From an uncultured virus (IMG/VR IMGVR_UViG_3300020421_000013) (lineage: Duplodnaviria > Heunggongvirae > Uroviricota > Caudoviricetes > Crassvirales), in the IMG/VR virus record IMGVR_UViG_3300020421_000013: 64,000 nt of DNA. One strand, written 5' to 3'. Numbering within the stretch: the stretch's first letter is position 1; every line of letters starts with the position of its first letter. Shown piece after piece: positions 1,728 through 53,420 of this stretch. The notes under the pieces are model-generated. The model worked only from the letters and a program-made list of their open reading frames with translations. It ran no database searches and had not been told where the DNA came from. Position numbers and translations under genes: made by a program.

Positions 1728-4700
1728 TTAACTACACTGATTATAATTTGGTAAGGATGCTACATCTCCTACCTCGTCTACAAACCCATCTGAATTGACA
1801 TGTATATAATTTTTATTATACTTATCTGCAAAATCTAGCTGAACTGATGAATCTGGGTTTCCTCTTTTAAATATAGAGGACTCTTCAGTGTTTCTTGATC
1901 CATAATAACCTGATATAAATGGAGTGCCAGCATAATCAGCGTAAAACTTAAGACCTGTTATATTTATATCTCCAGAGCTAGTAAACATATCATGAGAACG
2001 TGAACTATTGAAAAAAGTGGGGACAGTATATCCATCAGAATTTCTTTTTGGAAAACAAAATATAACATCTCCATAAACAGGCAAACTTCCATTTATAGAT
2101 TTAAAATTTGCGTTTCCAGTTCCTAATGTTGTTCCACCAGAATACATACCTAGTATATGAGTAAAAGTATACCCAGAAGGTGTTGATAATATAGGTCCAT
2201 TTACTGGATCAAAAAGATACTCTATTGATTGTCCAGAAGCAACAGCACCTGGTCGATCACCAACTGTCAATTCAGCTCTAGAATATATTTTAAGGTTGGT
2301 AGCTGCATCAGTTCCTGTTGCATCTGTTCTCCAAAATCCATTTACATACACTTTAGGAATAAATCCATAATACAAGAAAGCATCCCTAACAATATAGTGT
2401 CCGAGTATTGTTAATCCTGAAGTTCCAAAAGAACCTGACACAAGAGTTCCATTATTTGCTGGGTTTGGGACTGAAGATGTAGGCGCAGGACCCATATCAA
2501 ATATACCCTGATAAGTTGTATACTGTTGATTCGACACTGTGTTTAAAACAACTGGAAGAGTTTTACTTAATACAACTATATCAAATACTCCGTCAAATTT
2601 GCGCTGAACTCCATTACCAGTTGTAAATACAATAGAAAATGGGTTATCAGAGTAAACTTCATAATAGTAACCTTGATTATTTGGAGCTTGTGTAAGGGTT
2701 GTTCCTGAAGGAAGTGTTGGTGTTGTTATTGTTGTAAATATCCCTGTGTTTGAAATTGTTGGTGTTGGAGCTGGCGGTATTATAGTGACGCCAAAAGCGT
2801 AGTCTGTTAGTCTCTGTGAATGAGATATAAATTTTCTGTTTTCTTCTTTATCTATAAAAACACTTGATGTTTTTTTATATTTTTTTGTTGTATTATAATC
2901 GTATTCTTTTAAAATTGACCAATTATCTATAATGTCACTCACGTTAGCAGAGTAAGTTCCACTAATAATGTGACCATATGTGTGTCCTGGGGTCGTTCCG
3001 CTCCCTGTGTTGTGGAAAAAATATAATGGCGCATCTTCCCCTGGTAATCTAATATCGGTAAAAGCACCAGAAGAACCAGGCGTTCCGTTTGTAGTAATTC
3101 CGTCTGTGTATTGATTTGCATACTGTAGACCAGAAGCAGACTTTCTTGAAAATAATATTTGTTTGCCTGCATTAGATGTATCACTTTGATCAAATCTGAT
3201 AACACTTCCCTTTGGACCTGAAACAGCTTGATTTATTGCTGAATTACCGTCTATAACAAATAGAAAATAACCTGCTAAATTAGGATAAGCTTGCACTGTG
3301 ATAACTTTAGTCGTAACAGTGTTATAATCTGTTGCATCTGTCCATGATGAAGGAACTGTTCCTCCTAATCTAGTGTTTTCGCCTTTTATATTAACTTTCA
3401 TAAAAGCGTCAAAAAGACCAAATGTCGTAGTGCTTGATCCTGAAGGCACATTTCTGTGACCAGCAGCAGATGTGCTTGTAATAGCAAATACATTTCCATT
3501 TTGTTCGTACAGTGCAGGGTGGTATTCTGGATAAATATAACTATCACCTGTTATGCTATGAGTTGCACTTATTGAGGGAATATTATCTACAGACCAATTA
3601 ATTCCGTAATTCCAAGATATAGCGTATTCATTTGATCCTGTATAAATACATAATCCATTGTCTAATATTAAAAATGGTATATTTCCTTGATTAGCAGCAG
3701 TAGATTGCTGTAAATAATATGTTTCATGTGTGTTAAAAAAGTCAGTATTTTGATTAGCTGTAGATGTTCCGCTTAATCCAGCTATAATTGGCTTTATCAC
3801 ACAATTATCATTAGAAGTATTATTGTCTTGACTTGGAAAATATCTATATAACACAGAGCTTGTAACTGAAGCATTGTTATGATTTGTAAAAGTAATTCCG
3901 TCCCATCTCCATATAAACAAATAATCATATTCAATACTTGCGTATATTCTTGATTTATTAAAGTTATGTAGAACCGTTCCTGTCCCTTGTCCCTGTCCTC
4001 TTGAAGTAGTTAATTGTCCAAAAAAATCTGCATTTCCTGATTTTGTTTCATCAAAATCTAATATAGAAAAAGAAACTGCATTATCAATTGATTTAGCTAG
4101 AAACAATTTATTGACTGCTGAAGATAAAGGTCCAGCTATTCCGTTGCTATTATTAAGCATGCATAATGCATACCATACATGGTTACCACTAGAGTTTACT
4201 CCAGCGTAACAAAAGTCCTCTATATATGTTTGTCTTCTAAAAGCAGCTAGTGATTGATTGTGCCCAAATGTTGCAACAAGTTGACTGTCTGTAGGATTAA
4301 ATTGACATATTTGAAAATTAACCCCATCAGTTGATCTAGCTAATGTTCCTTGTCCAATTTGACCATCTTGTACAACTGATAAATAAATGTTGTTTTCTTT
4401 TTTTGAAAAAGAATAGGTAAGTGGATTATTAAACCTGCTTTTTAAAGCAAAATTATGAGCTCTTGTTTTTGAATGTATAACCTCTTGATAAAGACTAGTT
4501 GATCCAGTACCCACATATTCACAATCGTCTATTTTTATAACATTTAATGCATCATTATCTTCAATAGAAAAATAAGAACTAGATGTATAAGATACTACGC
4601 AACTTTCTTCATATCTAATCCAATTTTTTGTAGATCTAAGACCGTCATCAAATATCATGCTTGCTGTACCAAAATCTCCTGAGCAAGTTACTGTTATATC

Positions 4701-5312
4701 GCCCCAGTATATTGTTTTGGTCCCTGTATAAACAGAAGTAGAAACACTAACTGTTTTTGAATATTGTCCTGTCATAGATAAACCTGTACCAGATGTGTGT
4801 AAACAAAACGCATCGTTTTCATTGTCTATAAACCAAGCATATGTCTGCTGTGCTAGTGCTAAATATAAAGGATCAGATCCATAAAATGTTGTTGCGCTGT
4901 AATTAGTTATTGGCTCAAAAAAGTTGAATGAAGGAACCCCACCTCTCATAACAATATACTCTGAGGTGTTAGCACATAAATATTTTATTTTTTCTACATG
5001 TAGATTTAGTGTGATCTCGTTAGTGTTATCGTCAGAAGGATTTAAGTTTCCTGCTGCGTATTCAAGATTTATATTAAATGTTTGTGTGCCATGTATACCA
5101 TTTCCGTTTCCATCAGCTTCTCTATGGTCAGTTCCTGTTGTGATAGCTATAGGAGTGTTGTCTCCTGTTAAGTTCCATTCATCACCATTAATAGTTAGTA
5201 TGTCGGGATTTTGAATCATAGCGTATCCGTCTTTCACTTTAATAGTATATACACCAATATTTCCAGAAGAGTTTTCTGCTTTTGTTACGGTCTGTAGAAG
5301 CTGTATTGCCAT
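1728..5312 (-). CDS. Large beta-rich putative virion surface protein with Asp-box (BNR)-like motifs
   Basis: 1194 aa, S/T/G/N-rich; RSTDGVNF, KSIDNAVSF, SWNYGINW; degenerate cupredoxin-like segment. Confidence 0.55.
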   Translation of the reverse strand: MAIQLLQTVTKAENSSGNIGVYTIKVKDGYAMIQNPDILTINGDEWNLTGDNTPIAITTGTDHREADGNGNGIHGTQTFNINLEYAAGNLNPSDDNTNEITLNLHVEKIKYLCANTSEYIVMRGGVPSFNFFEPITNYSATTFYGSDPLYLALAQQTYAWFIDNENDAFCLHTSGTGLSMTGQYSKTVSVSTSVYTGTKTIYWGDITVTCSGDFGTASMIFDDGLRSTKNWIRYEESCVVSYTSSSYFSIEDNDALNVIKIDDCEYVGTGSTSLYQEVIHSKTRAHNFALKSRFNNPLTYSFSKKENNIYLSVVQDGQIGQGTLARSTDGVNFQICQFNPTDSQLVATFGHNQSLAAFRRQTYIEDFCYAGVNSSGNHVWYALCMLNNSNGIAGPLSSAVNKLFLAKSIDNAVSFSILDFDETKSGNADFFGQLTTSRGQGQGTGTVLHNFNKSRIYASIEYDYLFIWRWDGITFTNHNNASVTSSVLYRYFPSQDNNTSNDNCVIKPIIAGLSGTSTANQNTDFFNTHETYYLQQSTAANQGNIPFLILDNGLCIYTGSNEYAISWNYGINWSVDNIPSISATHSITGDSYIYPEYHPALYEQNGNVFAITSTSAAGHRNVPSGSSTTTFGLFDAFMKVNIKGENTRLGGTVPSSWTDATDYNTVTTKVITVQAYPNLAGYFLFVIDGNSAINQAVSGPKGSVIRFDQSDTSNAGKQILFSRKSASGLQYANQYTDGITTNGTPGSSGAFTDIRLPGEDAPLYFFHNTGSGTTPGHTYGHIISGTYSANVSDIIDNWSILKEYDYNTTKKYKKTSSVFIDKEENRKFISHSQRLTDYAFGVTIIPPAPTPTISNTGIFTTITTPTLPSGTTLTQAPNNQGYYYEVYSDNPFSIVFTTGNGVQRKFDGVFDIVVLSKTLPVVLNTVSNQQYTTYQGIFDMGPAPTSSVPNPANNGTLVSGSFGTSGLTILGHYIVRDAFLYYGFIPKVYVNGFWRTDATGTDAATNLKIYSRAELTVGDRPGAVASGQSIEYLFDPVNGPILSTPSGYTFTHILGMYSGGTTLGTGNANFKSINGSLPVYGDVIFCFPKRNSDGYTVPTFFNSSRSHDMFTSSGDINITGLKFYADYAGTPFISGYYGSRNTEESSIFKRGNPDSSVQLDFADKYNKNYIHVNSDGFVDEVGDVASLPNYNQCS

Positions 5313-17868: not shown

Positions 17869-20175
17869 CTATTTTATAATTTCGCTATTCAGACCTGAAT
17901 TGTTGTACTTTGCAAAGTTAACACTTATTTTGCTACGCTTTTTCTCAATCCTATTAATAAACCTTTGGTTTGCCATTATTGCTAATCCAGAGCTAATAGT
18001 GGCATCAAACTTGGTTCTATTGAATATATTATAGTTTGACCAATCTTTTAAAGTCCTCATAAAATACATTTTACCTACAGAACCTACATCTCTATAATTT
18101 CCAGTTGCATCCACTCCTACATTTCTTTCTATATACGCTTCAATAGATTCTGCGTGAACAGAAATAACTGGCTGTGAGGATGGTATGCCCCCTAGTTCTT
18201 TTTCAGACTTCGACAAATCATTTTTTGATTTATCTGGTCTATTCATTGCAAAAGCCCTATAGCCACGCTCTTTAAAATAATACAACAGTCTAGGTTTATT
18301 ATTTTCAACTAATATAGGCATGCTGTAAAAATGACAAGCCATCAATACATCTTCGTAAAATAACTCTGCTGTCTGTGGTCTTGCTATATATTCCAAAAAA
18401 AACAACTCTGAAGGTGCGTTATCGAAATTCACCTTCGTTAATCCATGAAGCGCCCCCTTTGATCCGCTTCCCCCTACAACTCCAGAAATGTCATAACTAT
18501 CACAACCAAAAGAGCCAATATGAATATTAAGTGGATAAAACTTGTCATTATCTCTTCGTACATTATTTCTCAATTCTTTAGGAGGTATCCAAGTTACGTA
18601 AAATTTGCCATTTCTAGAAGGAGTCCAGATAACATTTGATCCTCTAACACCATTTTCCCAATGAAAGTCTCCTCTATCAACAAAACTATTGGCTCCGTTT
18701 GTATCGTTAAAATCTATTTGCTCATATATCTTTTGAAGATTAAAAAGGCTGTTTTTTGATTCGTCCCTAAAAGCATGGTTTTCTGATCTAGGAAACTGCC
18801 TATAAAACTCGTTTAGAGCGTCAGGATCATTCTTCAAAGAATCAACTTCATTTTCCCAATAATCCAAAACACCTTGATATATGTAATCTCCGTGTATATC
18901 TATCAAAGGATCTTCAGGTGTTCTAAAAACAGGATGCCCATATTTATCTAAAAACCCCTCCATATTCCATTCCATAGGAATAAATAAATTATATAGTCCA
19001 GTTTTAGTTTGGCCATTAGCATTTCTTTCTGTAGGATTTGAATCGTAAAATAATTTCTTAAAATTGGATCCTCCTTTATCAAGAGCGTTTGAGGTAGACC
19101 CCATCATACACTTACCTATAATCCTTCTCCCTAATCTAAGACAAGTTTTAGTGACGCGCCAACTGTTGAGGATATTATCGGGTCGCTCCCACTTTCCAGA
19201 TTCATCATGCACGAGTAGCCTGAGTTTTTCACCGTCATAGGAATTGTCGCCTGTATTTTTCCAATCGATAGTTGTGTCAAGTCCTGCGAGCTCGTCTGTT
19301 TCTGTTTGTTCAATGTTTTTTCTGGTAAGCTTGGACGCTGGGACCCTGTATGCGAGCTCTGTCTTTGGCCTGTCCATTCCGTCTTGTATTGGCTTGAAAA
19401 AGAAGGGGTAGTTTGTTGATATTGGTACAACCTTATCTGTGAACATTTTTTTAGCATCAGCTCCAGATTTGGACAGTATCCCAAACCGTGCATCGGAAGT
19501 AATTGTTGCTTGAGCAACGGATTCAGATGAAGACATAAAGGAGAAGCCAGACCTTCTGTTTTTAAGATAGCACATTCCATAAGACCTATAGTCTGCTTTA
19601 CACGCTTCCCAGTAAATATAGAATATTCTATTAGACTCTCTGAACTCTGGGAGCCCAACATCAATCTTGGTCCACTGCAAGTACATGTAGTGAGAGCCAG
19701 TAATATAAGTAGGAACACTGTTGTTTTTAAACCAAAAACCATTTTCTCTTCTTTCGAATTCATTTTCAATGTAATCAACCCATGTTTCTTTGAATGAAGA
19801 TGGGTACTCATTCCACTGGAAAACGGTCTTAATTTTGAATAATTCTCTTGGATATTCTTCTGCTTCCCAATATTGTTCTTTCTTGTCATTACTCCTTGAA
19901 TGAACCTTTTTCGGCTGCAAAGGTAATGCAATTTTTAATCCGTTGATGTTGATCACTTCACCTACTTTACCCGTCTTGGATATAACTACAACATCGTATT
20001 TAGCGTTATAACCATAAACCCAAGATGAAGATTTGTTTTTTATCTTCTTTTCATTTTCTGGTATAGTTCCTATAGAGGTAAAAAGTCTAAGACTTTCTTC
20101 CTCTAGATTCAGCGAAACTTTGGAAGCCTGTATTTTTCTTTTCTGTGTCACCACCTTCAAGCTTTTCTCTCTCAA
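17869..20175 (-). CDS. terL: Terminase large subunit (start codon uncertain, non-ATG)
   Basis: LKNRRSGFS Walker A-like, LLVHDESGKW Walker B, GSTSN coupling motif, FGCDSYD nuclease, FDATISSGLA. Confidence 0.9.
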   Translation of the reverse strand: MREKSLKVVTQKRKIQASKVSLNLEEESLRLFTSIGTIPENEKKIKNKSSSWVYGYNAKYDVVVISKTGKVGEVININGLKIALPLQPKKVHSRSNDKKEQYWEAEEYPRELFKIKTVFQWNEYPSSFKETWVDYIENEFERRENGFWFKNNSVPTYITGSHYMYLQWTKIDVGLPEFRESNRIFYIYWEACKADYRSYGMCYLKNRRSGFSFMSSSESVAQATITSDARFGILSKSGADAKKMFTDKVVPISTNYPFFFKPIQDGMDRPKTELAYRVPASKLTRKNIEQTETDELAGLDTTIDWKNTGDNSYDGEKLRLLVHDESGKWERPDNILNSWRVTKTCLRLGRRIIGKCMMGSTSNALDKGGSNFKKLFYDSNPTERNANGQTKTGLYNLFIPMEWNMEGFLDKYGHPVFRTPEDPLIDIHGDYIYQGVLDYWENEVDSLKNDPDALNEFYRQFPRSENHAFRDESKNSLFNLQKIYEQIDFNDTNGANSFVDRGDFHWENGVRGSNVIWTPSRNGKFYVTWIPPKELRNNVRRDNDKFYPLNIHIGSFGCDSYDISGVVGGSGSKGALHGLTKVNFDNAPSELFFLEYIARPQTAELFYEDVLMACHFYSMPILVENNKPRLLYYFKERGYRAFAMNRPDKSKNDLSKSEKELGGIPSSQPVISVHAESIEAYIERNVGVDATGNYRDVGSVGKMYFMRTLKDWSNYNIFNRTKFDATISSGLAIMANQRFINRIEKKRSKISVNFAKYNNSGLNSEIIK
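17913..17920 (-). promoter_or_regulatory. Bacteroidota-type -7 element (TAACTTTG) upstream of portal
   Basis: TAnnTTTG in the 3' end of terL, ~50 nt before the portal ATG. Confidence 0.4.
19131..19742 (-). CDS. Candidate overprinted lipoprotein-like ORF in the +1 frame of terL
   Basis: ATG at 19742 after an A-rich leader; MVFGLKTTVFLLILLALTT-C signal-like start; 203 aa (frame open from at least 19931); local GC rise. Confidence 0.4.
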   Translation of the reverse strand: MVFGLKTTVFLLILLALTTCTCSGPRLMLGSQSSESLIEYSIFTGKRVKQTIGLMECAILKTEGLASPLCLHLNPLLKQQLLPMHGLGYCPNLELMLKKCSQIRLYQYQQTTPSFSSQYKTEWTGQRQSSHTGSQRPSLPEKTLNKQKQTSSQDLTQLSIGKIQATIPMTVKNSGYSCMMNLESGSDPIISSTVGASLKLVLD

Positions 20176-20371
20176 TTTGTATTCTGTTCAATATTTCAAA
20201 AGCATCAAAGATAGCAAGCTTTTTTGTTGCTGCTGCATTCTTCAATCTATCTGCTGCTAAATCAACCGAAGGGTCATCGGTAATAATTTCATCATGAGCA
20301 ACTTTTATAAGCTCTTCTACAGCTTTTTCTCCTGCCTCTATTACTCGAAGTATAGTTTCTTTAGTTCCCAT
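20087..20371 (-). CDS. Putative terminase small subunit
   Basis: LAADRLKNAAATKKLAIFDAFEILNRI motif; directly upstream of and overlapping terL; likely start MGTKET at 20371. Confidence 0.6.
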   Translation of the reverse strand: MGTKETILRVIEAGEKAVEELIKVAHDEIITDDPSVDLAADRLKNAAATKKLAIFDAFEILNRIQIEREKLEGGDTEKKNTGFQSFAESRGRKS

Positions 20372-20438
20372 TACACTTAAAGGTGTATTCAACTTCATAG
20401 TCACCCCAAGTTGTTGTGGTTATCCAATGTATTTTCAT
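20361..20438 (-). CDS. 25-aa hypothetical peptide (MKIHWITTTTWGDYEVEYTFKCNGN)
   Basis: Fills the gap with an AT-rich leader; overlaps the next start. Confidence 0.35.
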   Translation of the reverse strand: MKIHWITTTTWGDYEVEYTFKCNGN

Positions 20439-20439
20439 T

Positions 20440-20679
20440 TTATTTAATTTTATTTGTTGCATCTAATAGCCCTCTTTCGTATTCTGTTTTTTTCTCTAAC
20501 TCCATAAGTCTATTCTCGATTTTTTCCATAATCAAAACTTTTTCATCTAATCTTTCATGAACTAGATGTAGCTCATCTTTAAGTGCTGTAAATTCCGAGA
20601 ATATAGAACCTGCTGCAAAAACAGCAGCTATAAACGATATAACTACAGATAAATTATTTTTTATAAACGTATCTGCCAT
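20440..20679 (-). CDS. Small membrane-anchored coiled-coil protein
   Basis: 79 aa, N-terminal hydrophobic helix then heptads. Confidence 0.6.
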   Translation of the reverse strand: MADTFIKNNLSVVISFIAAVFAAGSIFSEFTALKDELHLVHERLDEKVLIMEKIENRLMELEKKTEYERGLLDATNKIK

Positions 20680-20771: not shown

Positions 20772-21341
20772 TTACGTAAACTCTACACAAATATCTTTTC
20801 TTCTCATCCGATATAGTTTTTCTCCATCTATTTCGAATTCATACTCACTGTCTTTGGTGTATCCTATTTCCAAACCATGTTTTAAACCTTGATTAATTAA
20901 GTTTTCATTGGTATATTTTAAAGTTCCTTTGTGTAATTCGTATGCACCTAAGGACACCTCCATATTCTCCTCCCCCTTCGGAGAGACAAAACAATAATCA
21001 TCAAAGCTAACCCAGTTATTATTTTTCTTAACAAGATAAATTTTATTAGATGGAACAAGATACAAATTATCTTTGAAATACTCGTTGCTCTTTCTTTCAT
21101 TACCTTTCATATCATAGTATGAACGAAAAACATTATGATGTAAAACAACTTGATCGCCTTCTTTTAAATCTCCAATATAAGATAGTGGGGTTTTTTTTAT
21201 TATTCCAAATCTATTGACATCTTTTGCATTTTCAATTGATGAGGTGATAATAACTCCTCCTTTCTCTCTGTTGTATTCTTGATTATTTTTTGGGCTAATT
21301 AAAAATGCACGTGTTGGTCTAAAAGTTAACATTATATTCAA
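20772..21341 (-). CDS. GroES-like (tandem co-chaperonin fold) protein
   Basis: FLISP..KGGVII..G.I...P..LKEGDQVV pattern, then a second half ending EYEFEIDGEKLYRMRRKDI. Confidence 0.55.
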   Translation of the reverse strand: MNIMLTFRPTRAFLISPKNNQEYNREKGGVIITSSIENAKDVNRFGIIKKTPLSYIGDLKEGDQVVLHHNVFRSYYDMKGNERKSNEYFKDNLYLVPSNKIYLVKKNNNWVSFDDYCFVSPKGEENMEVSLGAYELHKGTLKYTNENLINQGLKHGLEIGYTKDSEYEFEIDGEKLYRMRRKDICVEFT

Positions 21342-30733: not shown

Positions 30734-31153
30734 TTAGTGATGGTTCTTGTTTCCCATAACCTTCTCGTAAGACCTTCCGCCGAAGTAGCCTGCGAAGACA
30801 ACAAATAAAAGCTCTTTAACAACTGATAAACCTTCTATCTGCATATACCAGCCAATAACAAAAGAAACTGTAAGAAATATTAATGTTAGTGGCCTTACAT
30901 TAGAGGGGAGCCATCCACTTCTGGCATCTGCCACCCACCTTCTTGTAACACCGTCAATTTCAGCGCGTTCTATATCTAATTTTTTCAGAGCAACTTTTTT
31001 GTCCTCTTCACTCATTTCAGAACCTCCTATAATAGCCTGAATTACACTACCTGCTAATGTATCCCCAGCTACTGCGCCAACAACATTTGGTATTTTGTTA
31101 AGTAGGAATTGTCCTACCTTCGTGTCTTTGAATTTTTTTCTTTGTTGAGACAT
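30734..31153 (-). CDS. Holin (3TM/GTA-holin-like)
   Basis: RWVADARSGWLPSNVRPLTL, two C-terminal TM helices, YFGGRSYEK; adjacent to the endolysin. Confidence 0.75.
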   Translation of the reverse strand: MSQQRKKFKDTKVGQFLLNKIPNVVGAVAGDTLAGSVIQAIIGGSEMSEEDKKVALKKLDIERAEIDGVTRRWVADARSGWLPSNVRPLTLIFLTVSFVIGWYMQIEGLSVVKELLFVVFAGYFGGRSYEKVMGNKNHH

Positions 31154-31157
31154 TTTT

Positions 31158-31532
31158 TTAATAAACCCAAGTTACCTGTGGATCAAGGTCTTTTGCTCCA
31201 TCCGCATGAATAAATGTTTTAGCAACACCTATTCTATGACACCCAGCCTCTATAAGTCCTTTCAGAATCAAAAACCTATCTCTTGAACCTTTAACAGCTA
31301 TATCAACTGCACAAGGGCCGCCTTGTCTTGTAGACAAATGAGCCGAGTTAGATTTTCCTCCAACAGACTTGTTATGAGAAGGTGTACGGACTCCTGAGTT
31401 AATTCTGTACGGAGTCCCTGATATTTCCCTAGCCTTGTCAAGTAAAAGCAAAAATTCTTCATTCATCAAGGTTCCGCTTCCTGGTTCATCAGGAGAATCA
31501 AAATCTTGAATACTAAAGTATTTGAGTTCCAT
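31158..31532 (-). CDS. Peptidase M15-family endolysin
   Basis: INSGVRTPSHNKSVGG..SAH..AVDI..RIGVAKTFIHAD Zn-peptidase motifs. Confidence 0.85.
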   Translation of the reverse strand: MELKYFSIQDFDSPDEPGSGTLMNEEFLLLLDKAREISGTPYRINSGVRTPSHNKSVGGKSNSAHLSTRQGGPCAVDIAVKGSRDRFLILKGLIEAGCHRIGVAKTFIHADGAKDLDPQVTWVY

Positions 31533-31682
31533 TTATTTTCTTAATTTATGTGAAATATTAATTACTGTGTATATCAAAGTTGCTAATAAAACAAACGTTG
31601 ATAATATTGGGTTTATGTCATGAAAAAAACTAGTCCCAATCGCTGAGATACTTAATCCGTATATCTTCAAATCTTCTATCAT
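31533..31682 (-). CDS. 49-aa small membrane protein (holin/antiholin-like)
   Basis: MIEDLKIYGLSISAIGTSFFHDINPILSTFVLLATLIYTVINISHKLRK; coupled on both sides. Confidence 0.6.
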   Translation of the reverse strand: MIEDLKIYGLSISAIGTSFFHDINPILSTFVLLATLIYTVINISHKLRK

Positions 31683-31975
31683 TTTTTTGGTTTTCTTCCT
31701 GGTCTTGTTTTACCTGTAGCAGCTTTAGGTATATCTCCAAGTTGATTTCCAACTTCTTTGATTGCTTTACCTACATCAGATAATTCTTGACCTACTCTAT
31801 CAACTCTTATGGACACATCTTTTTTAAGATCCATAAATTTTTCTTCTAAAATATCAGGAATCATATTATTATTATCATCTTTTGTATATCCTTTTTTGGC
31901 AAGCCAAATAGCAGATACATTGATTGTAATTAATACAACTAGTAATATTATTGTTATTATAATTAAAGTTTGCAT
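31679..31975 (-). CDS. Membrane-anchored coiled-coil protein (possible lysis accessory)
   Basis: N-terminal TM helix, DDNNNMIPD motif, amphipathic helix, basic tail. Confidence 0.6.
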   Translation of the reverse strand: MQTLIIITIILLVVLITINVSAIWLAKKGYTKDDNNNMIPDILEEKFMDLKKDVSIRVDRVGQELSDVGKAIKEVGNQLGDIPKAATGKTRPGRKPKK

Positions 31976-31976
31976 T

Positions 31977-32057
31977 TTATTTTATATTTAAGTGTGAGCC
32001 ATCACAAATCCCTAGTGAGTTTTGAGTTGTTCCGCATACACATGGTTTAGTTTTCAT
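31977..32057 (-). CDS. 26-aa CDGSH-type Fe-S/Zn mini-protein (MKTKPCVCGTTQNSLGICDGSHLNIK)
   Basis: C-x-C-x9-CDGSH; ATGA overlap with the upstream stop, stop 1 nt before the next ATG. Confidence 0.65.
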   Translation of the reverse strand: MKTKPCVCGTTQNSLGICDGSHLNIK

Positions 32058-32296
32058 TTTCTTTTTGCTCCTCCTCGAGCCCTATTTATTTTTCTTCGTT
32101 CTGAGACTATAGTACCGTTCTTATGAGAACAATCCATGTTATCTCCCTTTTTTCCAAATTTACGATTAAAAGCATTACACTCTACACGTTTTTTGACTTG
32201 CTTCTTTTTTTTCTGAAAGACGCTATCATAAGCAGCCTTTTTAGCTCTCGCCTTGGGGTTGCTCCTGTAATATAAAGCAGTTCTGCCTAAACTCAT
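32054..32296 (-). CDS. Small basic protein with degenerate HNH-like motif
   Basis: 80 aa; DCSHKNG..ERRKINRARG. Confidence 0.6.
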   Translation of the reverse strand: MSLGRTALYYRSNPKARAKKAAYDSVFQKKKKQVKKRVECNAFNRKFGKKGDNMDCSHKNGTIVSERRKINRARGGAKRK

Positions 32297-32302
32297 AATT
32301 AT

Positions 32303-32389
32303 TTACTTTTTCTTTTTTTTCTTTTTCTTAGAAGTAGTTTTGGCTTTTTTTCCCATTTTTCCTCCGTAAGTTCCTTTTCCGTATGGCAT
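32303..32389 (-). CDS. 28-aa poly-Lys peptide (MPYGKGTYGGKMGKKAKTTSKKKKKKKK)
   Basis: AT-rich leader, tightly packed between neighbours. Confidence 0.6.
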   Translation of the reverse strand: MPYGKGTYGGKMGKKAKTTSKKKKKKKK

Positions 32390-32391
32390 AA

Positions 32392-32517
32392 TTAATCTTC
32401 TTTTGTTGGTTCAACTTCTTTTTTCTCTTCTTTAGCTTTTGCTTTTTTCTTAGCTGGTGCTACTCCCATTCTGATTAGGAAATCTTCCTTTTTTTCATTT
32501 TTTCCTCTTAACTCCAT
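32392..32517 (-). CDS. 41-aa Lys/Glu-rich peptide
   Basis: MELRGKNEKKEDFLIRMGVAPAKKK...; packed 2 nt from both neighbours. Confidence 0.55.
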   Translation of the reverse strand: MELRGKNEKKEDFLIRMGVAPAKKKAKAKEEKKEVEPTKED

Positions 32518-32519
32518 AA

Positions 32520-32768
32520 TTACTGTTTTTTAAATTTAACTTTCGCTTTTCTTGTGTTTGAAACAAACTGCTTGCTACTACCTCCAGATCTTTTTTTTCT
32601 TTTAGCAGTAGCAGCCCTTTCAGCCTGCGATAGGCTTCTAGCTTTTGATAGAGGTAAACATCTGTCTGGGTTTTTCTTATTTTTACTTGTCCCGCAAGCA
32701 CCTTTTATCTTCCCATCCGTTCCGATTCTCACCCATTTTTGTTCTCTCCATTTTTTTAATTCTCCCAT
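32520..32768 (-). CDS. Small basic phage protein (DUF5872-like)
   Basis: LKKWREQKWV..CG..CLPLSKARSLS..RAATAKRKK. Confidence 0.65.
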   Translation of the reverse strand: MGELKKWREQKWVRIGTDGKIKGACGTSKNKKNPDRCLPLSKARSLSQAERAATAKRKKRSGGSSKQFVSNTRKAKVKFKKQ

Positions 32769-34376: not shown

Positions 34377-35783
34377 TTAATGTGTATAACTACCGCTTCC
34401 AGTATATGTTAATATTGTTTTTTCAGCAGTAATAGTTCCATAAGCGTCTCTAATAATCTCCTGAGTTACTGAAGGTGAACCTGTGGTTGTGCCTGAATAT
34501 TGAGCAGTATCCATTCTTAGGATTACAACCCCTGATCCTCCTGCTGCAGGGCCTGTAGAACCGCTGTTTCTTGCAGATGCACCTCCACCACCGCCACCAC
34601 CTGAATTTATTTTTCCAGCTGTTGCAGCTACTCCGCTATAATTAGGGGGAGCATATCTTATGGCTCCAGTACCAGAACCATCTCCAAGACCACCTGCTCC
34701 AGCTACTCCTGAAGTAGAACCAAGCGGTATATGTAATCCACCTCCACCACCAGCTGCATATATAATATCAGTGCCTGTAATTCCAACTGTAGTTCCTACT
34801 CCTCCATTACCTGGTGTTGGTAAACTTGTGCTTCCGCCTCCTATACCGCCAGATCCTCCTCCTCCAGCTCCAGAAAATGTTGTGGCAAGACCACCACTGT
34901 ATCCTTGACAAGAAGTTCCAGAACCTTCTCGATCATCACCGTTGATGAAAACACCACCACCACCAGAACCTCCATTAGCAACAATGGAACCGTAAGAATA
35001 ACCTTGTCCAGTTCCGCCTTTGGTAGCTGTAATGGTTGTAATATTAGATCCTGATATTGAAGAATCAGTGTCTGATCCACCAACAGTAATAGTATAAGTA
35101 GTTCCGATTGTAAAAGTTGGTTTTGTTTCAGAAGAAGCTGCACAACCTCCTCCTGAATTACCAGATCCAAAAGTAGTTCTTAATCCTCCAGCTCCACCAC
35201 CACCACCAGCAGGGTTAGATTGACCACCATGAGGACCACCAGTACCACCACCAGCGATAATTAAAAAATCTGGAGTTATATTAGCTGGGGGCGGAATTGT
35301 AGTTAAATTTTGATCAGTCCAACCTTTAGTCGAATCTTGGTATATTAACGTAGCACTTGTATTTAATGTTCTTAATTGACCATCTTCAGAACTACCTTGT
35401 ATTTTATCTGAACCATTAGCAATTATTCTAACTCGGTAAACATTAAAAGTACCTGCATAATCCTGTATGCTTATCTGATCTCCTACTGTGCCTTGTGGTA
35501 AAGTTACACTTACCTCAGCGGATGTGGTATTAACAAAATATCCTTTTAGACTAACTGCAGTAAAATTACTTGTTTGAATAGTGCTTATCCATTCAATCCC
35601 GCTAGAACTATTAGCAATTGATGTGTCAACATAATCTTTTACAGCAGCTGATGTAGGTAGAGTAGTATCATTATCATTTGAGCCTATTCCCTCCGATTCT
35701 GTTACCATGGTAGCATCTGATATTTTATCTGTATTTATCGAATCATCCGATATTAATGCTCTTGACACTCTAGTTATTGCCAT
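34377..35783 (-). CDS. Glycine-rich tail fibre/surface protein (copy 2)
   Basis: Same domain order as 32779..34008 plus an SNDNDTTLPTSAAVKDYVD motif. Confidence 0.7.
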   Translation of the reverse strand: MAITRVSRALISDDSINTDKISDATMVTESEGIGSNDNDTTLPTSAAVKDYVDTSIANSSSGIEWISTIQTSNFTAVSLKGYFVNTTSAEVSVTLPQGTVGDQISIQDYAGTFNVYRVRIIANGSDKIQGSSEDGQLRTLNTSATLIYQDSTKGWTDQNLTTIPPPANITPDFLIIAGGGTGGPHGGQSNPAGGGGGAGGLRTTFGSGNSGGGCAASSETKPTFTIGTTYTITVGGSDTDSSISGSNITTITATKGGTGQGYSYGSIVANGGSGGGGVFINGDDREGSGTSCQGYSGGLATTFSGAGGGGSGGIGGGSTSLPTPGNGGVGTTVGITGTDIIYAAGGGGGLHIPLGSTSGVAGAGGLGDGSGTGAIRYAPPNYSGVAATAGKINSGGGGGGGASARNSGSTGPAAGGSGVVILRMDTAQYSGTTTGSPSVTQEIIRDAYGTITAEKTILTYTGSGSYTH

Positions 35784-36630: not shown

Positions 36631-36810
36631 TTATTTTCCTATTTTACTCATTGCTGATTTATGTGATCCAGTAAATGACATTTTAGAACTACCACACATT
36701 TTTTTTACCATGTCCGAAATATGCTTCCCTGTGTGGTGCTTAGAATGTTCTTTCATTGTTTTTTGTTGTCTTTTTGATAAACAACTTACATCTATACCTT
36801 TTATTTTCAT
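36631..36810 (-). CDS. 59-aa basic His-rich protein
   Basis: MKIKGIDVSCLSKRQQKTMKEHSKHHTGKH..SFTGSHKSAMSKIGK. Confidence 0.65.
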   Translation of the reverse strand: MKIKGIDVSCLSKRQQKTMKEHSKHHTGKHISDMVKKMCGSSKMSFTGSHKSAMSKIGK

Positions 36811-36815
36811 GATAT

Positions 36816-36983
36816 TTACTTTTTGCCTTTTGATTTTTTAGCATAATTAGGATCCTTACAATATTTACTTGCAGCCATATTTGCATAAGCTGATGGATAT
36901 CGATCAAATGTCCTCTTTGCCCATGCTATCCCTGCCGAACATATTTTATTGCCCCTGTTTGCTTTTGTTTTACTTTTTGCCAT
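36816..36983 (-). CDS. 55-aa basic protein
   Basis: MAKSKTKANRGNKICSAGIAWAKRTFDRYPSAYANMAASKYCKDPNYAKK. Confidence 0.65.
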   Translation of the reverse strand: MAKSKTKANRGNKICSAGIAWAKRTFDRYPSAYANMAASKYCKDPNYAKKSKGKK

Positions 36984-37143
36984 AAGGAAATATTTCGTTT
37001 AATGTTTTTCTTCTTTTATCACATCCACAAGGTGTGTTAGTGGCTTTTGACGTTGCTTCCACAATAGCTTTGATTCCTGTCGATTTTGTGAACGCCTCGA
37101 CAGTATCTCCAAAACCTTTGTGATTTTTAAACAAATTTGCCAT
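36970..37143 (-). CDS. 57-aa protein with CGC motif
   Basis: KGFGDTVEAFTKSTGIK..PCGCDKRRKTLNEIFPY. Confidence 0.65.
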   Translation of the reverse strand: MANLFKNHKGFGDTVEAFTKSTGIKAIVEATSKATNTPCGCDKRRKTLNEIFPYGKK

Positions 37144-37256
37144 TACTTCTTTTTTCTATTGCTTTTCTTAAGAGCTGCAAAATCTGCAGATGTGATCTTA
37201 TCATAAGGTATCGATGCTCTTGCTATTTTTTTTTGTGCTGGTGTTAATTTTTTCAT
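37143..37256 (-). CDS. 37-aa basic peptide
   Basis: MKKLTPAQKKIARASIPYDKITSADFAALKKSNRKKK; TAATG coupling. Confidence 0.65.
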   Translation of the reverse strand: MKKLTPAQKKIARASIPYDKITSADFAALKKSNRKKK

Positions 37257-37259
37257 ATT

Positions 37260-37559
37260 CTAATATTTTCCTTGTCTTGATTTAGGAGAACTTTTAGTGG
37301 ACCCCCCTTTTCCAGCCCATAAGTTTTTACAAGCCCAGTATCTTGCAGTCAACTTGTTTGTTGCTGACGAACAATTATGTCTAGCCTTAAATGACTTTCT
37401 AGCTGCTGCAGAATAATTATGACCATACCCTTTTGCTCCGTAATGAATTATTTTTTCCGTTCCTCCAGAACAAGCTTTAACCATTCTTTTCTTTCCTGGC
37501 CTTGTACTCGAGCGTGGTGAGTTACAAGCCATTTTAGATTTATCAACTCTTTTTGCCAT
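37260..37559 (-). CDS. 99-aa basic Cys-containing phage protein
   Basis: Likely start MAKRVDK at 37559; KKRMVKAC..IIHYGAKGY..SFKARHNC..ARYWACKNLW. Confidence 0.7.
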   Translation of the reverse strand: MAKRVDKSKMACNSPRSSTRPGKKRMVKACSGGTEKIIHYGAKGYGHNYSAAARKSFKARHNCSSATNKLTARYWACKNLWAGKGGSTKSSPKSRQGKY

Positions 37560-37563
37560 GCAA

Positions 37564-37571
37564 CAAATATA
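37564..37571 (-). promoter_or_regulatory. Bacteroidota-type -7 element (TATATTTG) heading the late operon
   Basis: In the divergent gap, only 4 nt upstream of the ATG at 37559 (possibly leaderless). Confidence 0.5.
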
Positions 37572-37615
37572 CGATAAAAAAAAGTTCGCTATTTTTGATT
37601 CTAAATCACATCTAG

Positions 37616-38104
37616 TTGAAAAGACCAGCAAAACGCATCAGACAAAAAGCTACAGACAAGTATCATATATCATACGAAAAAGAAAGAAGGTATGGTTTTT
37701 TAAAATATTGGAGGATAGTTAAGTATTATGTAAAAAGAAAGTACGAGTTGTCTGAAACAGATCTCGAAATGCTACTCTACCTTTATGATGAAGGTCGTTT
37801 TGATATGGAAGCTTTTAAAGAGTATGCAAACATTATGCATTGGGACAGAAATAGATTTTGGAATCTGAAAGAAAAAGGATTTATAAATGTTTGGAGAAAA
37901 AGAAACGAAGTTAGCAACAGAAGGCCTATATACGAGCTCTCTGTAAAATCAGCTAGAATATGCAACTTAGTCTACAAAAGGTTGTTGCTTGAGGAGAAGA
38001 TTTCAGAAAACCCAAGAATAAACCCTATCATGAAAGGCACAACCTATACTGACAGGGTTTATAGAATGGCAATAAAAAAGATGAATCGAAAAATCAAAGA
38101 CTGA
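37616..38104 (+). CDS. Winged-helix DNA-binding protein (putative regulator)
   Basis: LSETDLEMLLYLYDEG..LKEKGFI..YELS; lone plus-strand gene divergent from the late operon. Confidence 0.6.
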   Translation: MKRPAKRIRQKATDKYHISYEKERRYGFLKYWRIVKYYVKRKYELSETDLEMLLYLYDEGRFDMEAFKEYANIMHWDRNRFWNLKEKGFINVWRKRNEVSNRRPIYELSVKSARICNLVYKRLLLEEKISENPRINPIMKGTTYTDRVYRMAIKKMNRKIKD

Positions 38105-38819
38105 CCGCCTTTTTCAAAACATCGTAATCTCTTACGGAAACCCTGCTTTTAAGTTCTCTCATTGTAACAGGTAGACCTTCGCCTTTTATCTCAGCCACAG
38201 CATGCTTGCACTTAAGAAACTCTGATTCATTTTTTATGTCCTTGTTTCGAAGCTTTAGATTTAATAGCATCTTATTATCGAAACTTCTGCGCACCGTAGG
38301 TGCACTACATCCAAGAACTTCTCCAATTTTTTTCATTGTAAGTTTACCTTGGATTTGGCTACAGGCTCTCCATATATCTGATGATTCAAATCTTATACTT
38401 GGATGAATTAACTGCTGCACGATCTTTCGCTTCTCTTCAATTGGTATCATTTTCGATGGGTTAAATATAACCTTTCTCTTTTTTCTACAATAAGGTTTTG
38501 TTAGAGTTTTTTCCCAAACATCTTCACAAATTGCATCTATTCTTCTGTCACTGTATGTTCTAATAACATGACCATTAGATCTGTCTGTCATTTGCTTCAT
38601 GTGGCGTACAAAAACAGAGTATTCAATTTTTGGATTTAGCCACCTAAGTTTTTCCGCCACATACTCAACTTCCTGAATAGAGTTTATTTTTCTAGTTGTT
38701 CTAAAAAGACTATAGAATTCGATGCCCTTTGGAAAGAAAAGATATTTCTGACCTCCGAACTTAAAAGAGGATTCCATAATAATCCTATCTTCTTCATATT
38801 CGAAGAGTGGTATGTACAT
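38094..38819 (-). CDS. Conserved hypothetical protein with C-terminal HTH
   Basis: 241 aa; KLTMKKIGEVLGCSAPTVRR. Confidence 0.6.
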   Translation of the reverse strand: MYIPLFEYEEDRIIMESSFKFGGQKYLFFPKGIEFYSLFRTTRKINSIQEVEYVAEKLRWLNPKIEYSVFVRHMKQMTDRSNGHVIRTYSDRRIDAICEDVWEKTLTKPYCRKKRKVIFNPSKMIPIEEKRKIVQQLIHPSIRFESSDIWRACSQIQGKLTMKKIGEVLGCSAPTVRRSFDNKMLLNLKLRNKDIKNESEFLKCKHAVAEIKGEGLPVTMRELKSRVSVRDYDVLKKAVSL

Positions 38820-39073
38820 TACTCCTTAACAACAATCCCACTTTCAAGTAAAACCAATTTGATTTCACCTGACATTCTCATTTCTGAAGAAGCCATTTTA
38901 TCATAGTACACGTTGTCACCAGGACTAACTTCTTTTACCTTTGCCCCCACCGAGTCAACAACCCCCCTGACATATCTAACATTTTTATCCGTCTTGCTTG
39001 ACAAGATAACACCCCCTGATTCTATCTCGTCTTTTATTGGAGTTATAACAATGTATTGACCTAATGCTTTCAT
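38819..39073 (-). CDS. groES: Co-chaperonin GroES
   Basis: MKALGQYIVI..SGGVILS..GVVDSVG..VSPGDNVYY; coupled to groEL. Confidence 0.85.
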   Translation of the reverse strand: MKALGQYIVITPIKDEIESGGVILSSKTDKNVRYVRGVVDSVGAKVKEVSPGDNVYYDKMASSEMRMSGEIKLVLLESGIVVKE

Positions 39074-40665
39074 GCTCTAATATTTGTGATTACGCAATCA
39101 GTTGTTAAAATTTCACAAGACACGCTAACTGCATTTTCAACTACATTTATGGTTACTGTTGTAGGGTCGAGTATTTTTTCTTTAAACATATCAACTACTT
39201 GGTTTGTTATAGCGTTATATCCTTTTTTATAATCTTCTTTTCCAACTTCTTTTGTAACAACAGTAAAGGCTTTATCTTTCATATCTGTGTTGGACATGAT
39301 TGTGGTTAAAAGCGATGATGTAGATGCACAAAGGCAAAACCAACCTTTTCTATAGGAATCATCCCAATCGGAAAATTTTTCCTGTTCTACATGAGATCTC
39401 ATTTTTCTTCCTATATGAAGAAGTGCTGTACCTCCACCAGGAACCACGCCCATCTTCATAGCAGCACGAGTAGCACTTATTGCATCATCCACTCTGTCCA
39501 TCTTCTCTTTCATCTCCACTTCAGTAGAAGCTCCTACATGTACTGTTGCAACTCCTCCAGTCAACTTCGACAGTCTATCTCTCAAGTGCCACTCATTATC
39601 TGCTTCTTTCTCGTCAGCTATTTTTTGCTCTAAATGTTCTTTCAGTTCTGATATCACCTTCTGATCTTTTGGCTCTACAAACAAAACTGTTTCTCCTTCT
39701 GAAACAACAACCTTATCTGAAGATCCTAAATATTCTGGTGTGATCTGACCGAAGTCGCTACCTTGTGCTTCTGAAAAAACTTTCGATCCAGTCATACTTG
39801 CTAGATCTTGTAAAAGTTCATCTCTTTTGTATCCTACACCAGCAGGCTTTACCACACAAGCTTTAAACCTTCCTTTGTTGTTGTTGAGAATCATTGTAGC
39901 TAAAAATTCATCTGATGTGTCAGCTACGATAATTATTGACTTACTGTTCTCTGCGCAATATTGAAGTATCGGCAGAATCTGCTGAGCACTTTGTATTTCA
40001 GATGAACAAATAAAAATAAGGGGAGACTGAGCAACAAATTCACGTTTATTAATATCCGTGACTAAGTGGTGGGATGCCCAGCCTCTATCAATTTTAGTTC
40101 CTTCTTTGATGGTTACATAGCTTTCTTCGTTGTAAGATTCCTCTACAGCTACTACTCCATCCTTTCCAACCTTTTCATATGCTTCTGCAATTAACTTTCC
40201 AATCTTTTTATCGTTGTTTGCCGATATTGAAGCAACTGCTACTAGGTCCGTTTTACTTAATTTTTTATTCATCTTCTTCAAAGAATCAACAACATAATCT
40301 TTAGCATCATGCATACCTCTTTTAAATTTATGAATGTTGGCAATTTCACTTCGAGTAGTCAATGAGATGATTGCGTTACTTAGCACAATGGAGGAGGTAG
40401 TTCCATCTCCAGCCCGTAGGGCTGTTTTTTTACTAGCCTGCCTAACTGTATTCATCGCTAAGTTTTCAATCGGATCTGTGAGCGTTATGCTTTCCGCAAC
40501 CGTTATACCATCTTTTGTAACGTGTGGTCTCCCGTGCACATCCTCTAGTATAACTGTCTTACCGTTTGGTCCTAGAGTAGAACCCACAGCTCTATTTAAT
40601 TTAGATATACCAGATTTCATTTTAATCCAGGCATCGTCCTTAAAAGTTAATTGTTTTTCTATCAT
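39070..40665 (-). CDS. groEL: Phage chaperonin GroEL
   Basis: TLGPNG, TKDGITVA, AGDGTTS, ISANND, EMKEKMDRVDDA, GVVPGGG, ILDP motifs; no GGM tail. Confidence 0.95.
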   Translation of the reverse strand: MIEKQLTFKDDAWIKMKSGISKLNRAVGSTLGPNGKTVILEDVHGRPHVTKDGITVAESITLTDPIENLAMNTVRQASKKTALRAGDGTTSSIVLSNAIISLTTRSEIANIHKFKRGMHDAKDYVVDSLKKMNKKLSKTDLVAVASISANNDKKIGKLIAEAYEKVGKDGVVAVEESYNEESYVTIKEGTKIDRGWASHHLVTDINKREFVAQSPLIFICSSEIQSAQQILPILQYCAENSKSIIIVADTSDEFLATMILNNNKGRFKACVVKPAGVGYKRDELLQDLASMTGSKVFSEAQGSDFGQITPEYLGSSDKVVVSEGETVLFVEPKDQKVISELKEHLEQKIADEKEADNEWHLRDRLSKLTGGVATVHVGASTEVEMKEKMDRVDDAISATRAAMKMGVVPGGGTALLHIGRKMRSHVEQEKFSDWDDSYRKGWFCLCASTSSLLTTIMSNTDMKDKAFTVVTKEVGKEDYKKGYNAITNQVVDMFKEKILDPTTVTINVVENAVSVSCEILTTDCVITNIRA

Positions 40666-53246: not shown

Positions 53247-53420
53247 ATGAAAGCGGCTGATTTTTTAAACAATTATTTTAACGATGAACTTTCACCTTTA
53301 TTAGATGAGGTGTACGAAGATTGTATGGATCAGTCACACAGTACGGCAAAAAATAAAATTAATAAGCTTATATATAAGCTTCAAGAATTAAGAAGACATT
53401 TGCATGACAACAATGAGTGA
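53247..53420 (+). CDS. 57-aa hypothetical protein
   Basis: MKAADFLNNYFNDELSPLLDEVYE...; abuts the upstream stop. Confidence 0.5.
   Translation: MKAADFLNNYFNDELSPLLDEVYEDCMDQSHSTAKNKINKLIYKLQELRRHLHDNNE

Follow-up and report, generated by a model that had tools for sequence, protein, structure and literature searches.

We analysed a stretch of 64,000 nucleotides from an uncultured Crassvirales phage (IMG/VR record IMGVR_UViG_3300020421_000013; called the window below), in which terL, the gene for the large subunit of the terminase, contains a long stop-free reading frame on its own strand, displaced by +1. Comparison of relatives in which this frame is open or closed indicates that it is almost certainly a real, selected gene overprinted on terL, and supports the proposal of an earlier note, made from the letters of the window alone, that a hidden gene with a hydrophobic leader and a cysteine lies here. 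For its product, a role in lysis is proposed tentatively below. ORF+ and ORF− denote terL copies with an open or a closed +1 open reading frame (ORF), respectively, and codon numbers are those of terL. The features of the overlap are the following.

17869–20175, minus strand: terL, host gene of the overlap, up to 768 amino acids (aa), matching phrog_6681 (E = 1.3e-178).
19131–19934, minus strand: stop-free +1 frame, 267 codons from stop to stop (terL codons 81–348).
19131–19763, minus strand: likely coding sequence of the overprinted gene, 210 aa, from ATG 19763 (terL codon 138); the alternative ATG 19742 gives 203 aa.
19686–19715, minus strand: hydrophobic core of the putative signal, FLLILLALTT, preceded by Lys (terL codons 154–163).
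19677–19685, minus strand: C-T-C, two candidate lipidation cysteines with Thr at −1 of each; 19685–19683 is forced by terL and 19679–19677 is selected.
19134–19676, minus strand: predicted mature chain, about 180 aa, hydrophilic (36% Ser, Thr, Gln or Pro), net charge +7, predicted to be unstructured and without a membrane helix.
19132–19779, minus strand: terL tract of different ancestry than its flanks (about codons 133–348; boundaries approximate).

The earlier description of the frame in the window was reproduced exactly: it runs 266 codons from TTG 19931 (267 from stop to stop), the TAG at 19133–19131 arises from TTA-G, all four hand-counted GC values (29, 34, 18 and 22 of 60) are correct, and the ATG at 19742 follows an A-rich leader and opens a 203-aa protein with a cysteine at position 20. 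The codon-shuffle check that the note had suggested also favoured a gene, since none of 10,000 synonymous shuffles of terL reached 267 codons (mean longest +1 run 79, maximum 215) and two reached 203. Among the 27 window genes tested, terL alone has an alternative frame that exceeds all 300 shuffles. The GC content is 0.42 over 19131–19742, and 0.34 both over 19743–19934 and in the rest of terL; because the rise does not extend over 19743–19934, the gene probably does not include the opening 64 codons of the stop-free frame. The open frame is not an assembly error, as an identical terL protein with the same frame is present in two other IMG/VR contigs (L400 and L401), and parts of the ORF are also found, with 0–3 differences, in contigs of four runs from two studies. 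RNA-labelled runs contain the stretch as assembled contigs, which cannot show transcription, strand or level, and the stretches left uncovered in two of these runs (X3 and X4) carry no meaning. The 203-aa protein is already present in a metagenomic protein collection, with 54 unannotated relatives. Other same-strand +1 runs in the window comprise 112 codons at 34841–35170 (minus strand, p = 0.007), 97 codons at 1728–5312 (minus strand, p = 0.023) and 88 codons at 53404–54549 (plus strand, p = 0.017), with p values uncorrected among 54 tests.

The terL genes of relatives fall into two classes. In a first set of 80 IMG/VR homologues plus the window (TerL identity 63–80%), 52 of 81 genes had no +1 stop in codons 145–281, where sequence-specific nulls predict 0.1 open genes and 5.5 stops per gene. 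An independent set from genome bins, from which six of 151 loci were dropped, had 34 of 64 open. All searches pooled gave 337 sequences, or 269 distinct at 95% identity, of which 124 were open and 145 closed (41/80 and 5/80 records whose terL did not cover the region were dropped); some searches used biased queries, so that the 46% open is no population frequency. Among the 269 distinct sequences the position of the first stop was bimodal, either no later than codon 204 or no earlier than codon 220, with no intermediates, and at Leu204, on the Walker A side, a stop was found in 27/29 closed and 0/52 open copies. The density of +1 stops was ordinary in the neighbouring genes of both classes and, in open copies, also elsewhere in terL. 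The check for scattered stops in homologous terL genes, put forward in the earlier note, thus gave a divided answer: about half of the homologues are open, and the scattered +1 stops of the other half mark the gene as accessory. Suppressed synonymous variation, which the note had likewise named, was found at the signal (codons 150–164; 0.34 vs 0.55) but not along the whole ORF.

In a tree of 176 sequences (34 short ones were dropped), computed without the overlap and with four cultured phages as the root, open copies were present in all major subclades, and the state changed at least 15 times, compared with a mean of 58 for shuffled states. The ORF was absent from Elemovirus, Baltivirus phi18:3, Callevirus phi38:1, Gundelvirus and MW202828, whose longest +1 runs are 39–87 codons with none at this place, and from both of the two more distant terL genes that cover the region. 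The terL frame is accordingly older and more widely distributed than the +1 ORF; as befits an overprinted gene, the frame is open beyond the expectation from codon usage, and the +1 protein is under selection in diverged homologues.

A profile search of 1.84 billion proteins returned 152 matches; the matches that were inspected consisted of +1 products, chimeras and a repeat artefact. The +1 protein had no match in Pfam or PHROGs (none at E ≤ 1 in PHROGs for the window protein), and searches with 44 ORF members yielded no shared family, with one chimeric member matching terL. In the literature covered, mostly outside subscription journals and as titles and beginnings of abstracts, we found no description of this ORF. 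Two more distant +1-frame products (P0162 and P0165) lack the hydrophobic leader and suggest open frames in further terL lineages; no contig was found for them, and the search with P0099 gave loci of known type only. Several database proteins (P0002, P0019, P0042, P0048–P0055, P0063, P0070 and P0120) join TerL and +1 sequence, with the switch at variable positions, and are probably the result of assembly indel errors.

The clearest amino acid signature of the open copies lies in the leader. Mean Kyte–Doolittle hydropathy (KD) at codons 154–163 was 2.68 in 92 ORF+ and 0.61 in 98 ORF− copies, and the ORF+ copies had 0.09 charged residues per sequence there. Leu is nearly fixed among open copies at +1 positions 155, 156, 159 and 161, followed by Thr163, Thr165, Cys166 and Ser167. 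For the window sequence alone the hydrophobicity of the core gave p = 0.07. These sequence comparisons make it very probable that the hydrophobic leader is under selection.

A long-branch, monophyletic second clade carries the signal at another place. It comprises 19 sequences (16 distinct; 6/228 loci were dropped from this survey) with the frame open to codon 249 or later. Hydrophobicity is lost at codons 154–163 (KD −0.53) and present at codons 134–149 (KD 1.98, compared with 0.23 and 0.08 in the other groups), in an uncharged run that ends in I/T-G-S-C in 14/16 and is preceded by its own ATG at codon 119 in 14/16, vs 1/92 and 0/98 elsewhere. Ser at −1 is selected in this clade (TTC in 14/16 vs 14/98 closed copies), and its Cys150 derives from a terL ATG codon. 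The two hydrophobic windows are reciprocal between the clades and both are missing in closed copies. This relocation speaks for selection on a protein export signal with a cysteine at its end, and against a nucleotide element or a frameshift site.

The start codon is not fixed. ATG 19742 (terL codon 145), offered earlier as the start, does not hold as a conserved one, being found in only 5/92 ORF+ relatives. An ATG at codons 133–138 occurs in 76/92 ORF+ vs 39/98 ORF− relatives, from which we infer ATG 19763 as the start; judged on sequence, this codon (placing the cysteines at positions 27 and 29) is at least as likely as ATG 19742 (Cys20 and Cys22).

The arrangement at the cysteines suggests that the +1 product is probably lipidated. 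Cys20, the residue that the earlier note had singled out, is uninformative, as terL Met164–Tyr165 forces it and it is present in 98/98 closed copies. The selected residue is Cys22 (position 166), which falls at a Leu codon and occurs in 86/92 ORF+ vs 34/98 ORF− copies, and a relaxed lipobox at either cysteine was found in 89/92 open vs 29/98 closed copies. A basic n-region and an uncharged h-region end at a cysteine 15–35 residues from the start (Cys20/22 or Cys27/29), and the +1 protein conforms to relaxed Armbruster-type lipoprotein criteria, which for Bacteroides place the cysteine at 15–35 with uncharged residues ahead of it, according to the text available of PMC12889592. The signal peptidase II layout described in the earlier note therefore stands as regards the hydrophobic run followed by a cysteine, and its lipobox is non-canonical. 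The consensus is [LVI][ASTVI][GAS]C, and unusual boxes exist (PMC6139136, accessible part). The +1 protein did not match Pfam LPAM_1. For comparison, a pattern scan of 863 long ORFs in two Bacteroidota bins gave 78 host candidates, 50 of which had Ser or Ala at −1. In the main clade, terL Tyr163 and Tyr165 permit only Thr or Ile in the +1 frame at these positions, and Thr was chosen; the two copies with Tyr-to-Phe changes reach Ser. No acidic surface-export motif follows the cysteine, which leaves a periplasm-facing location as the default.

The predicted mature chain is selected for composition. Its tail (codons 170–280) was more hydrophilic than a stop-free codon null (z < −2) in 75/83 and 13/13 open copies, compared with 3/91 closed ones, and GC at third codon positions in the tail of open copies was 0.417 vs 0.286 expected; selection for a hydrophilic tail accounts for the rise in GC inside the overlap. 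The mean net charge of open copies was +12 and the mature length mostly 117–202 residues. A C-terminal membrane helix was found in 0/106 open copies (maximum 19-residue KD 1.37), so that the product is not a unimolecular spanin (u-spanin). AlphaFold2 with 44 sequences gave a mean pLDDT of 44, with the signal helix alone confident and no beta structure predicted. Retroelement Gag-like clusters in the ESM Atlas were rejected as relatives, since their best feature score of 0.83 was below the usable mark; the second-clade protein had no usable match there.

Several observations weigh against the reading of the frame as a lipoprotein gene. The first cysteine (164) is dictated by terL, and in the second clade Gly at −2 is forced by terL Trp148 and is seen in 0/78 host candidates. 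The window has L-T-T-C or T-C-T-C, which departs from the strict lipobox consensus, and Thr at −1 occurred in 1/78 of the pattern-picked candidates. No start codon is fixed among open copies, and in 7/92 of them only GTG or TTG lies 12–40 codons ahead of the cysteine. Some open copies end after 54–56 mature residues, and +1 identity at codons 170–249 was 0.43 in open and 0.45 in closed copies, with no gain in the former.

The ORF segment moves as a unit by recombination. Within codons 133–348 the window shares 119 informative sites with the ORF+ copy L004 and 28 with the ORF− copy L002, while outside these codons the corresponding counts are 36 vs 46 and 133 vs 191. DNA identity of the window terL to L004 is 85–94% within the tract and 63–78% outside. 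The window groups with L004 and L005 over codons 133–348 (bootstrap 96) and with the ORF− copies L001 and L002 on the 3′ side of the ORF (bootstrap 100). The tract limits roughly match the ORF, and dual-coding constraint contributes some of the identity at the signal. A second mosaic terL is seen in five ORF+ loci (L027, L055, L106, L111 and L120), in which the 3′ half groups with the ORF− copies L009–L012 and the 5′ half with the large ORF+ clade.

Three neighbouring regions bear on the function of the product.

20087–20404, minus strand: conserved gene of 103–105 aa overlapping the start of terL, found in 124 loci (best family match E = 0.019); by position it would be the small terminase.
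20440–20679, minus strand: 79-aa gene resembling an inner-membrane spanin (i-spanin) in anatomy, with an N-terminal membrane segment and a coiled-coil-like acidic tail.
30734–31975, minus strand: lysis cluster with a holin (phrog_3427), an M15 endolysin, a holin-like protein of 49 aa and a membrane/coil protein of 98 aa.

A pattern scan of the lysis cluster (30734–31975) in any frame found no lipoprotein gene, and a six-frame scan of the window found no lipoprotein-like gene on the late strand other than the ORF; a looser scan added one distant 63-aa ORF, which is apparently spurious. A lipoprotein gene of 107–207 aa lies beside the endolysin in 5/14 ORF− vs 0/16 ORF+ records (p = 0.014). These endolysin-adjacent genes (L144:3811–4317, L081:15458–16078, L271:17928–18542, L286:11073–11393 and one in L132) are unrelated lipoprotein genes and have no PHROG name; that of L144 has C-terminal membrane helices and resembles a u-spanin. 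The 79-aa gene was found beside terL in 39 loci, all ORF+ (14 distinct). In that subclade, where enough flank was available, it was present in 14/21 ORF+ and 0/4 ORF− copies (26/269 sequences were dropped from this count, and 11/30 records without terL from a separate survey). Where it lies elsewhere in the genome, 17/19 genomes were ORF+, with both signal types represented. Among loci not found with the 79-aa query, the gene was near terL in 0/115 ORF− and 6/78 ORF+ loci. Away from terL it lay within 0.9 kb of an M15 endolysin in 8/41 loci. A set composed of the 79-aa membrane/coil gene, a coil gene of 66–87 aa and an overlapping lipoprotein gene of 53–78 aa (L003:2605–2805, and in L005, L409, L410, L417, L433 and L434) resembles a spanin cassette that has escaped annotation. 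In the window the 79-aa gene is present and the small lipoprotein is absent.

We propose an accessory gene that arose by overprinting in the N-terminal half of terL, on the ATPase side. It would have its own translation initiation, at a position that drifts between lineages (here ATG 19763 or 19742), on a probably late packaging/structural transcript. Its product would be exported by Sec, lipidated at the cysteine after the short hydrophobic core and cleaved by signal peptidase II, giving a lipid-anchored, unstructured, basic chain of about 120–200 residues whose likely place is the periplasmic side. Selection on the signal, on a minimum open length and on hydrophilicity rather than on a fold is the profile of a tether. 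Such a tether would most likely serve lysis at its outer-membrane step, as an unlinked subunit that is either accessory or similar to an outer-membrane spanin (o-spanin) and that has membrane-anchored coiled-coil proteins as partners, for instance the product of the 79-aa gene (20440–20679). Taken as a whole, this chain of steps, drawn from sequence comparison, is our best single guess and a tentative one; if the product is a lipoprotein, we regard a role in lysis as evenly balanced. As to the idea of an outer-membrane spanin in the earlier note, a lysis-accessory role has indirect support, a u-spanin is excluded and the textbook o-spanin architecture is not there.

A number of findings count against the lysis role. 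The contrast at the endolysin (5/14 vs 0/16) weakens to p = 0.06 when the second clade is counted once, and 9/14 ORF− records have no lipoprotein beside the endolysin. Most ORF+ loci (72/78) lack the 79-aa gene near terL. A conventional lipoprotein of 53–78 aa adjoins the 79-aa gene in 8/14 terL-adjacent and 7/19 distant cases, all ORF+; because it coexists with the ORF, it is the better o-spanin candidate there and has not been replaced by the ORF. The ORF is nested in terL, with the candidate i-spanin 0.7 kb upstream beyond the small terminase, which departs from o-spanin architecture. No gene family other than the ORF itself co-varied with it in 3–10 kb flanks and 27 long contigs, and the associations with the 79-aa gene and the endolysin may reflect shared ancestry or host range. 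Further searches were neutral or empty. No hidden partner ORF in the +1 and +2 frames of the portal, small terminase, GroES-like and 72-aa genes was tied to the ORF state. A complex prediction of two 79-aa tails with the mature +1 chain scored 0.00, which is no evidence either way, and a sigma-70 scan gave 8 sites vs 4.9 ± 2.0 expected with a model not suited to Bacteroidota.

A different job for a real lipoprotein would be to modify the host envelope, masking or jamming the phage receptor (superinfection exclusion or progeny protection) or tuning the timing of lysis. We consider this the next best guess, though an improbable one. The ORF is patchy and often gained, lost and swapped, as host-interaction genes are (at least 15 changes in the 176-sequence tree, and recombination), it is dispensable in 145/269 relatives, and it coexists with the conventional small lipoprotein beside the 79-aa gene. 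Cor and the T5 exclusion lipoprotein Llp are likewise accessory phage lipoproteins of patchy distribution, and as receptor blockers they are short folded proteins; the +1 product is longer, unstructured and overprinted, shows neither residue-level conservation nor a fold, and had no sequence similarity to Cor (profile phrog_1119 was in the searched library) or to any PHROG family, its 44 searched members having no common family. A late-gene position would also fit early exclusion poorly. It is unlikely, in our judgement, that the product is exported or membrane-anchored but unlipidated, its leader being either cut by signal peptidase I or kept whole as an inner-membrane anchor, and its cysteines being by-products of terL Met codons or serving disulfides. 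The non-canonical Thr at −1 and Gly at −2 would suit this, as would the origin of both Cys164 and the second-clade Cys150 in terL ATG codons, and the small residues of T-C-T-C-S-G could make a −3/−1 peptidase I site. Proline after the site disfavours peptidase I cleavage, and Pro follows C-S-G in 24/52 copies; moreover, the main-clade core of about 10 residues is short for a membrane anchor, both independent signals end directly at a cysteine, and Ser at −1 in the second clade and Cys166 in the main clade are selected.

Two further explanations dispense with an independently translated export protein. Programmed frameshifting could yield a TerL(1–140)–ORF fusion, as in tail chaperones or influenza PA-X, and would account for the lack of a fixed start codon and for the TerL/ORF chimeras in databases. 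It is very improbable, as codons 137–153 contain no conserved shift-prone sequence (Phe147 is TTT in 59/92, with Tyr or His in others), the chimeras switch at differing places in the manner of assembly indels, and the second clade has its own conserved ATG; in a fusion, the signal would also be internal. That there is no gene, and that a nucleotide element or local codon bias holds the frame open, is less credible still. Synonymous constraint is indeed limited to codons 150–164 and the tail is conserved no more than terL imposes, but the bimodal stops go far beyond sequence-specific nulls, stops in open copies are as dense as usual outside this region and in the adjacent genes, and the features under selection are those of amino acids (a hydrophobic run and a hydrophilic tail) and relocate between clades. 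An RNA fold at the signal had 0 compensatory pairs (three sequences, a weak test).

The overprinted lipoprotein gene has partial counterparts among known phage genes. Lambda Rz1 in Rz and T7 18.7 in 18.5 are likewise nested out of frame on the same strand, with a hydrophobic signal ending in Cys and an unstructured mature part, and are usually missed by gene callers (PMC6139136, in the part available). The +1 ORF is unlike them in lying inside a packaging motor gene and not an i-spanin gene, 11 kb from the lysis cluster, in its mature chain of mostly 117–202 aa compared with 40 for Rz1, in its non-canonical lipobox and in occurring in only part of the group. Kongari et al. describe lambda Rz1 as unstructured and give combined periplasmic lengths of 62–300 residues (PMC6139136). 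The u-spanins, such as T1 gp11 and those of flavophages Ingeline and Nekkels, also combine a lipoprotein signal with a long periplasmic stretch (PMC6139136 and PMC8776804, in the parts available), and are set apart by the C-terminal membrane helix that is absent from all 106 open copies and by their beta structure, of which none is predicted here. Parallels in position are T7 19.2 and 19.3 (NC_001604), annotated ORFs of 85 and 57 aa in the +1 frame of the terminase large subunit gene. They belong to an unrelated terL family, are unrelated in sequence, much shorter and hypothetical, and lack an N-terminal hydrophobic run with a Cys. T7 19.2 is named as a conserved T7-like protein in PMC4038870, as far as its available text goes, and the main text of a T7 knockout preprint (10.1101/2024.10.10.617714) mentions neither 19.2 nor 19.3, its supplements possibly bearing on both.

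The window covers most of the genome of a phage, in which the structural genes are phi38:1-like and genes for GroEL, GroES-like proteins and an M15 endolysin also occur. Its TerL is 32–43% identical to those of cultured Flavobacteriaceae podoviruses (Elemovirus, Pachyviridae and Pervagoviridae) and 65% identical to that of one freshwater metagenomic phage; terL is missing from the nearest virus record (G001). The marine Flavobacteriaceae phage genomes that form group 2 in Nishimura et al. (2017) share the phi38:1-like structural genes and GroEL, according to the available part of PMC5332604, and the window phage would fit that group. The regions 20772–21341, 38819–39073 and 39070–40665 (minus strand) together hold GroEL, an adjoining GroES-sized gene and a second, longer GroES-like gene, which almost all relatives have at a fixed place upstream of the terminase. 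The terL start is uncertain (20100–20175, minus strand): TTG 20175 gives an overlap of about 30 codons with the small terminase gene, and TerL N termini vary between close relatives. Runs of short Lys/Arg-rich ORFs at 32054–32768 and 36631–37631 (minus strand) are common to relatives. One 117-kb contig (G008:C7) carries two terL genes of this phage group. Many such phage contigs (loci L087–L155) are binned with unrelated taxa, so that record titles do not give hosts.

In tailed phages terL serves as the standard marker gene, on the assumption that it codes in one frame only. In this abundant group of aquatic Bacteroidota phages, about half of the members sampled have a second gene over some 200 terL codons. 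Overprinting reshapes third-codon positions and the segment recombines as a unit, with consequences for annotation, for dN/dS and for phylogenies based on terL. With closed sister lineages as controls and a relocated signal peptide, the system offers a large sample and an unusually clear view of a gene being born by overprinting in a double-stranded DNA phage. A doubtful extension of the lysis role is a spanin split across the genome. Its outer-membrane subunit, arisen de novo in terL, would have re-invented its signal at least twice, at different positions and within the limits set by TerL, would spread between phage lineages by recombination of the terL segment, and would act with a short unlinked i-spanin as a cationic tether independent of sequence. 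If true, spanin genes would have a fourth architecture, and a lysis function would be set by composition and length, not by fold. Ninety-one of 677 genomes from phages that infect Gram-negative bacteria seem to be without spanins, according to the available text of PMC6139136; if the lysis role holds, such an apparent lack could mean that the gene is hidden in a packaging gene.

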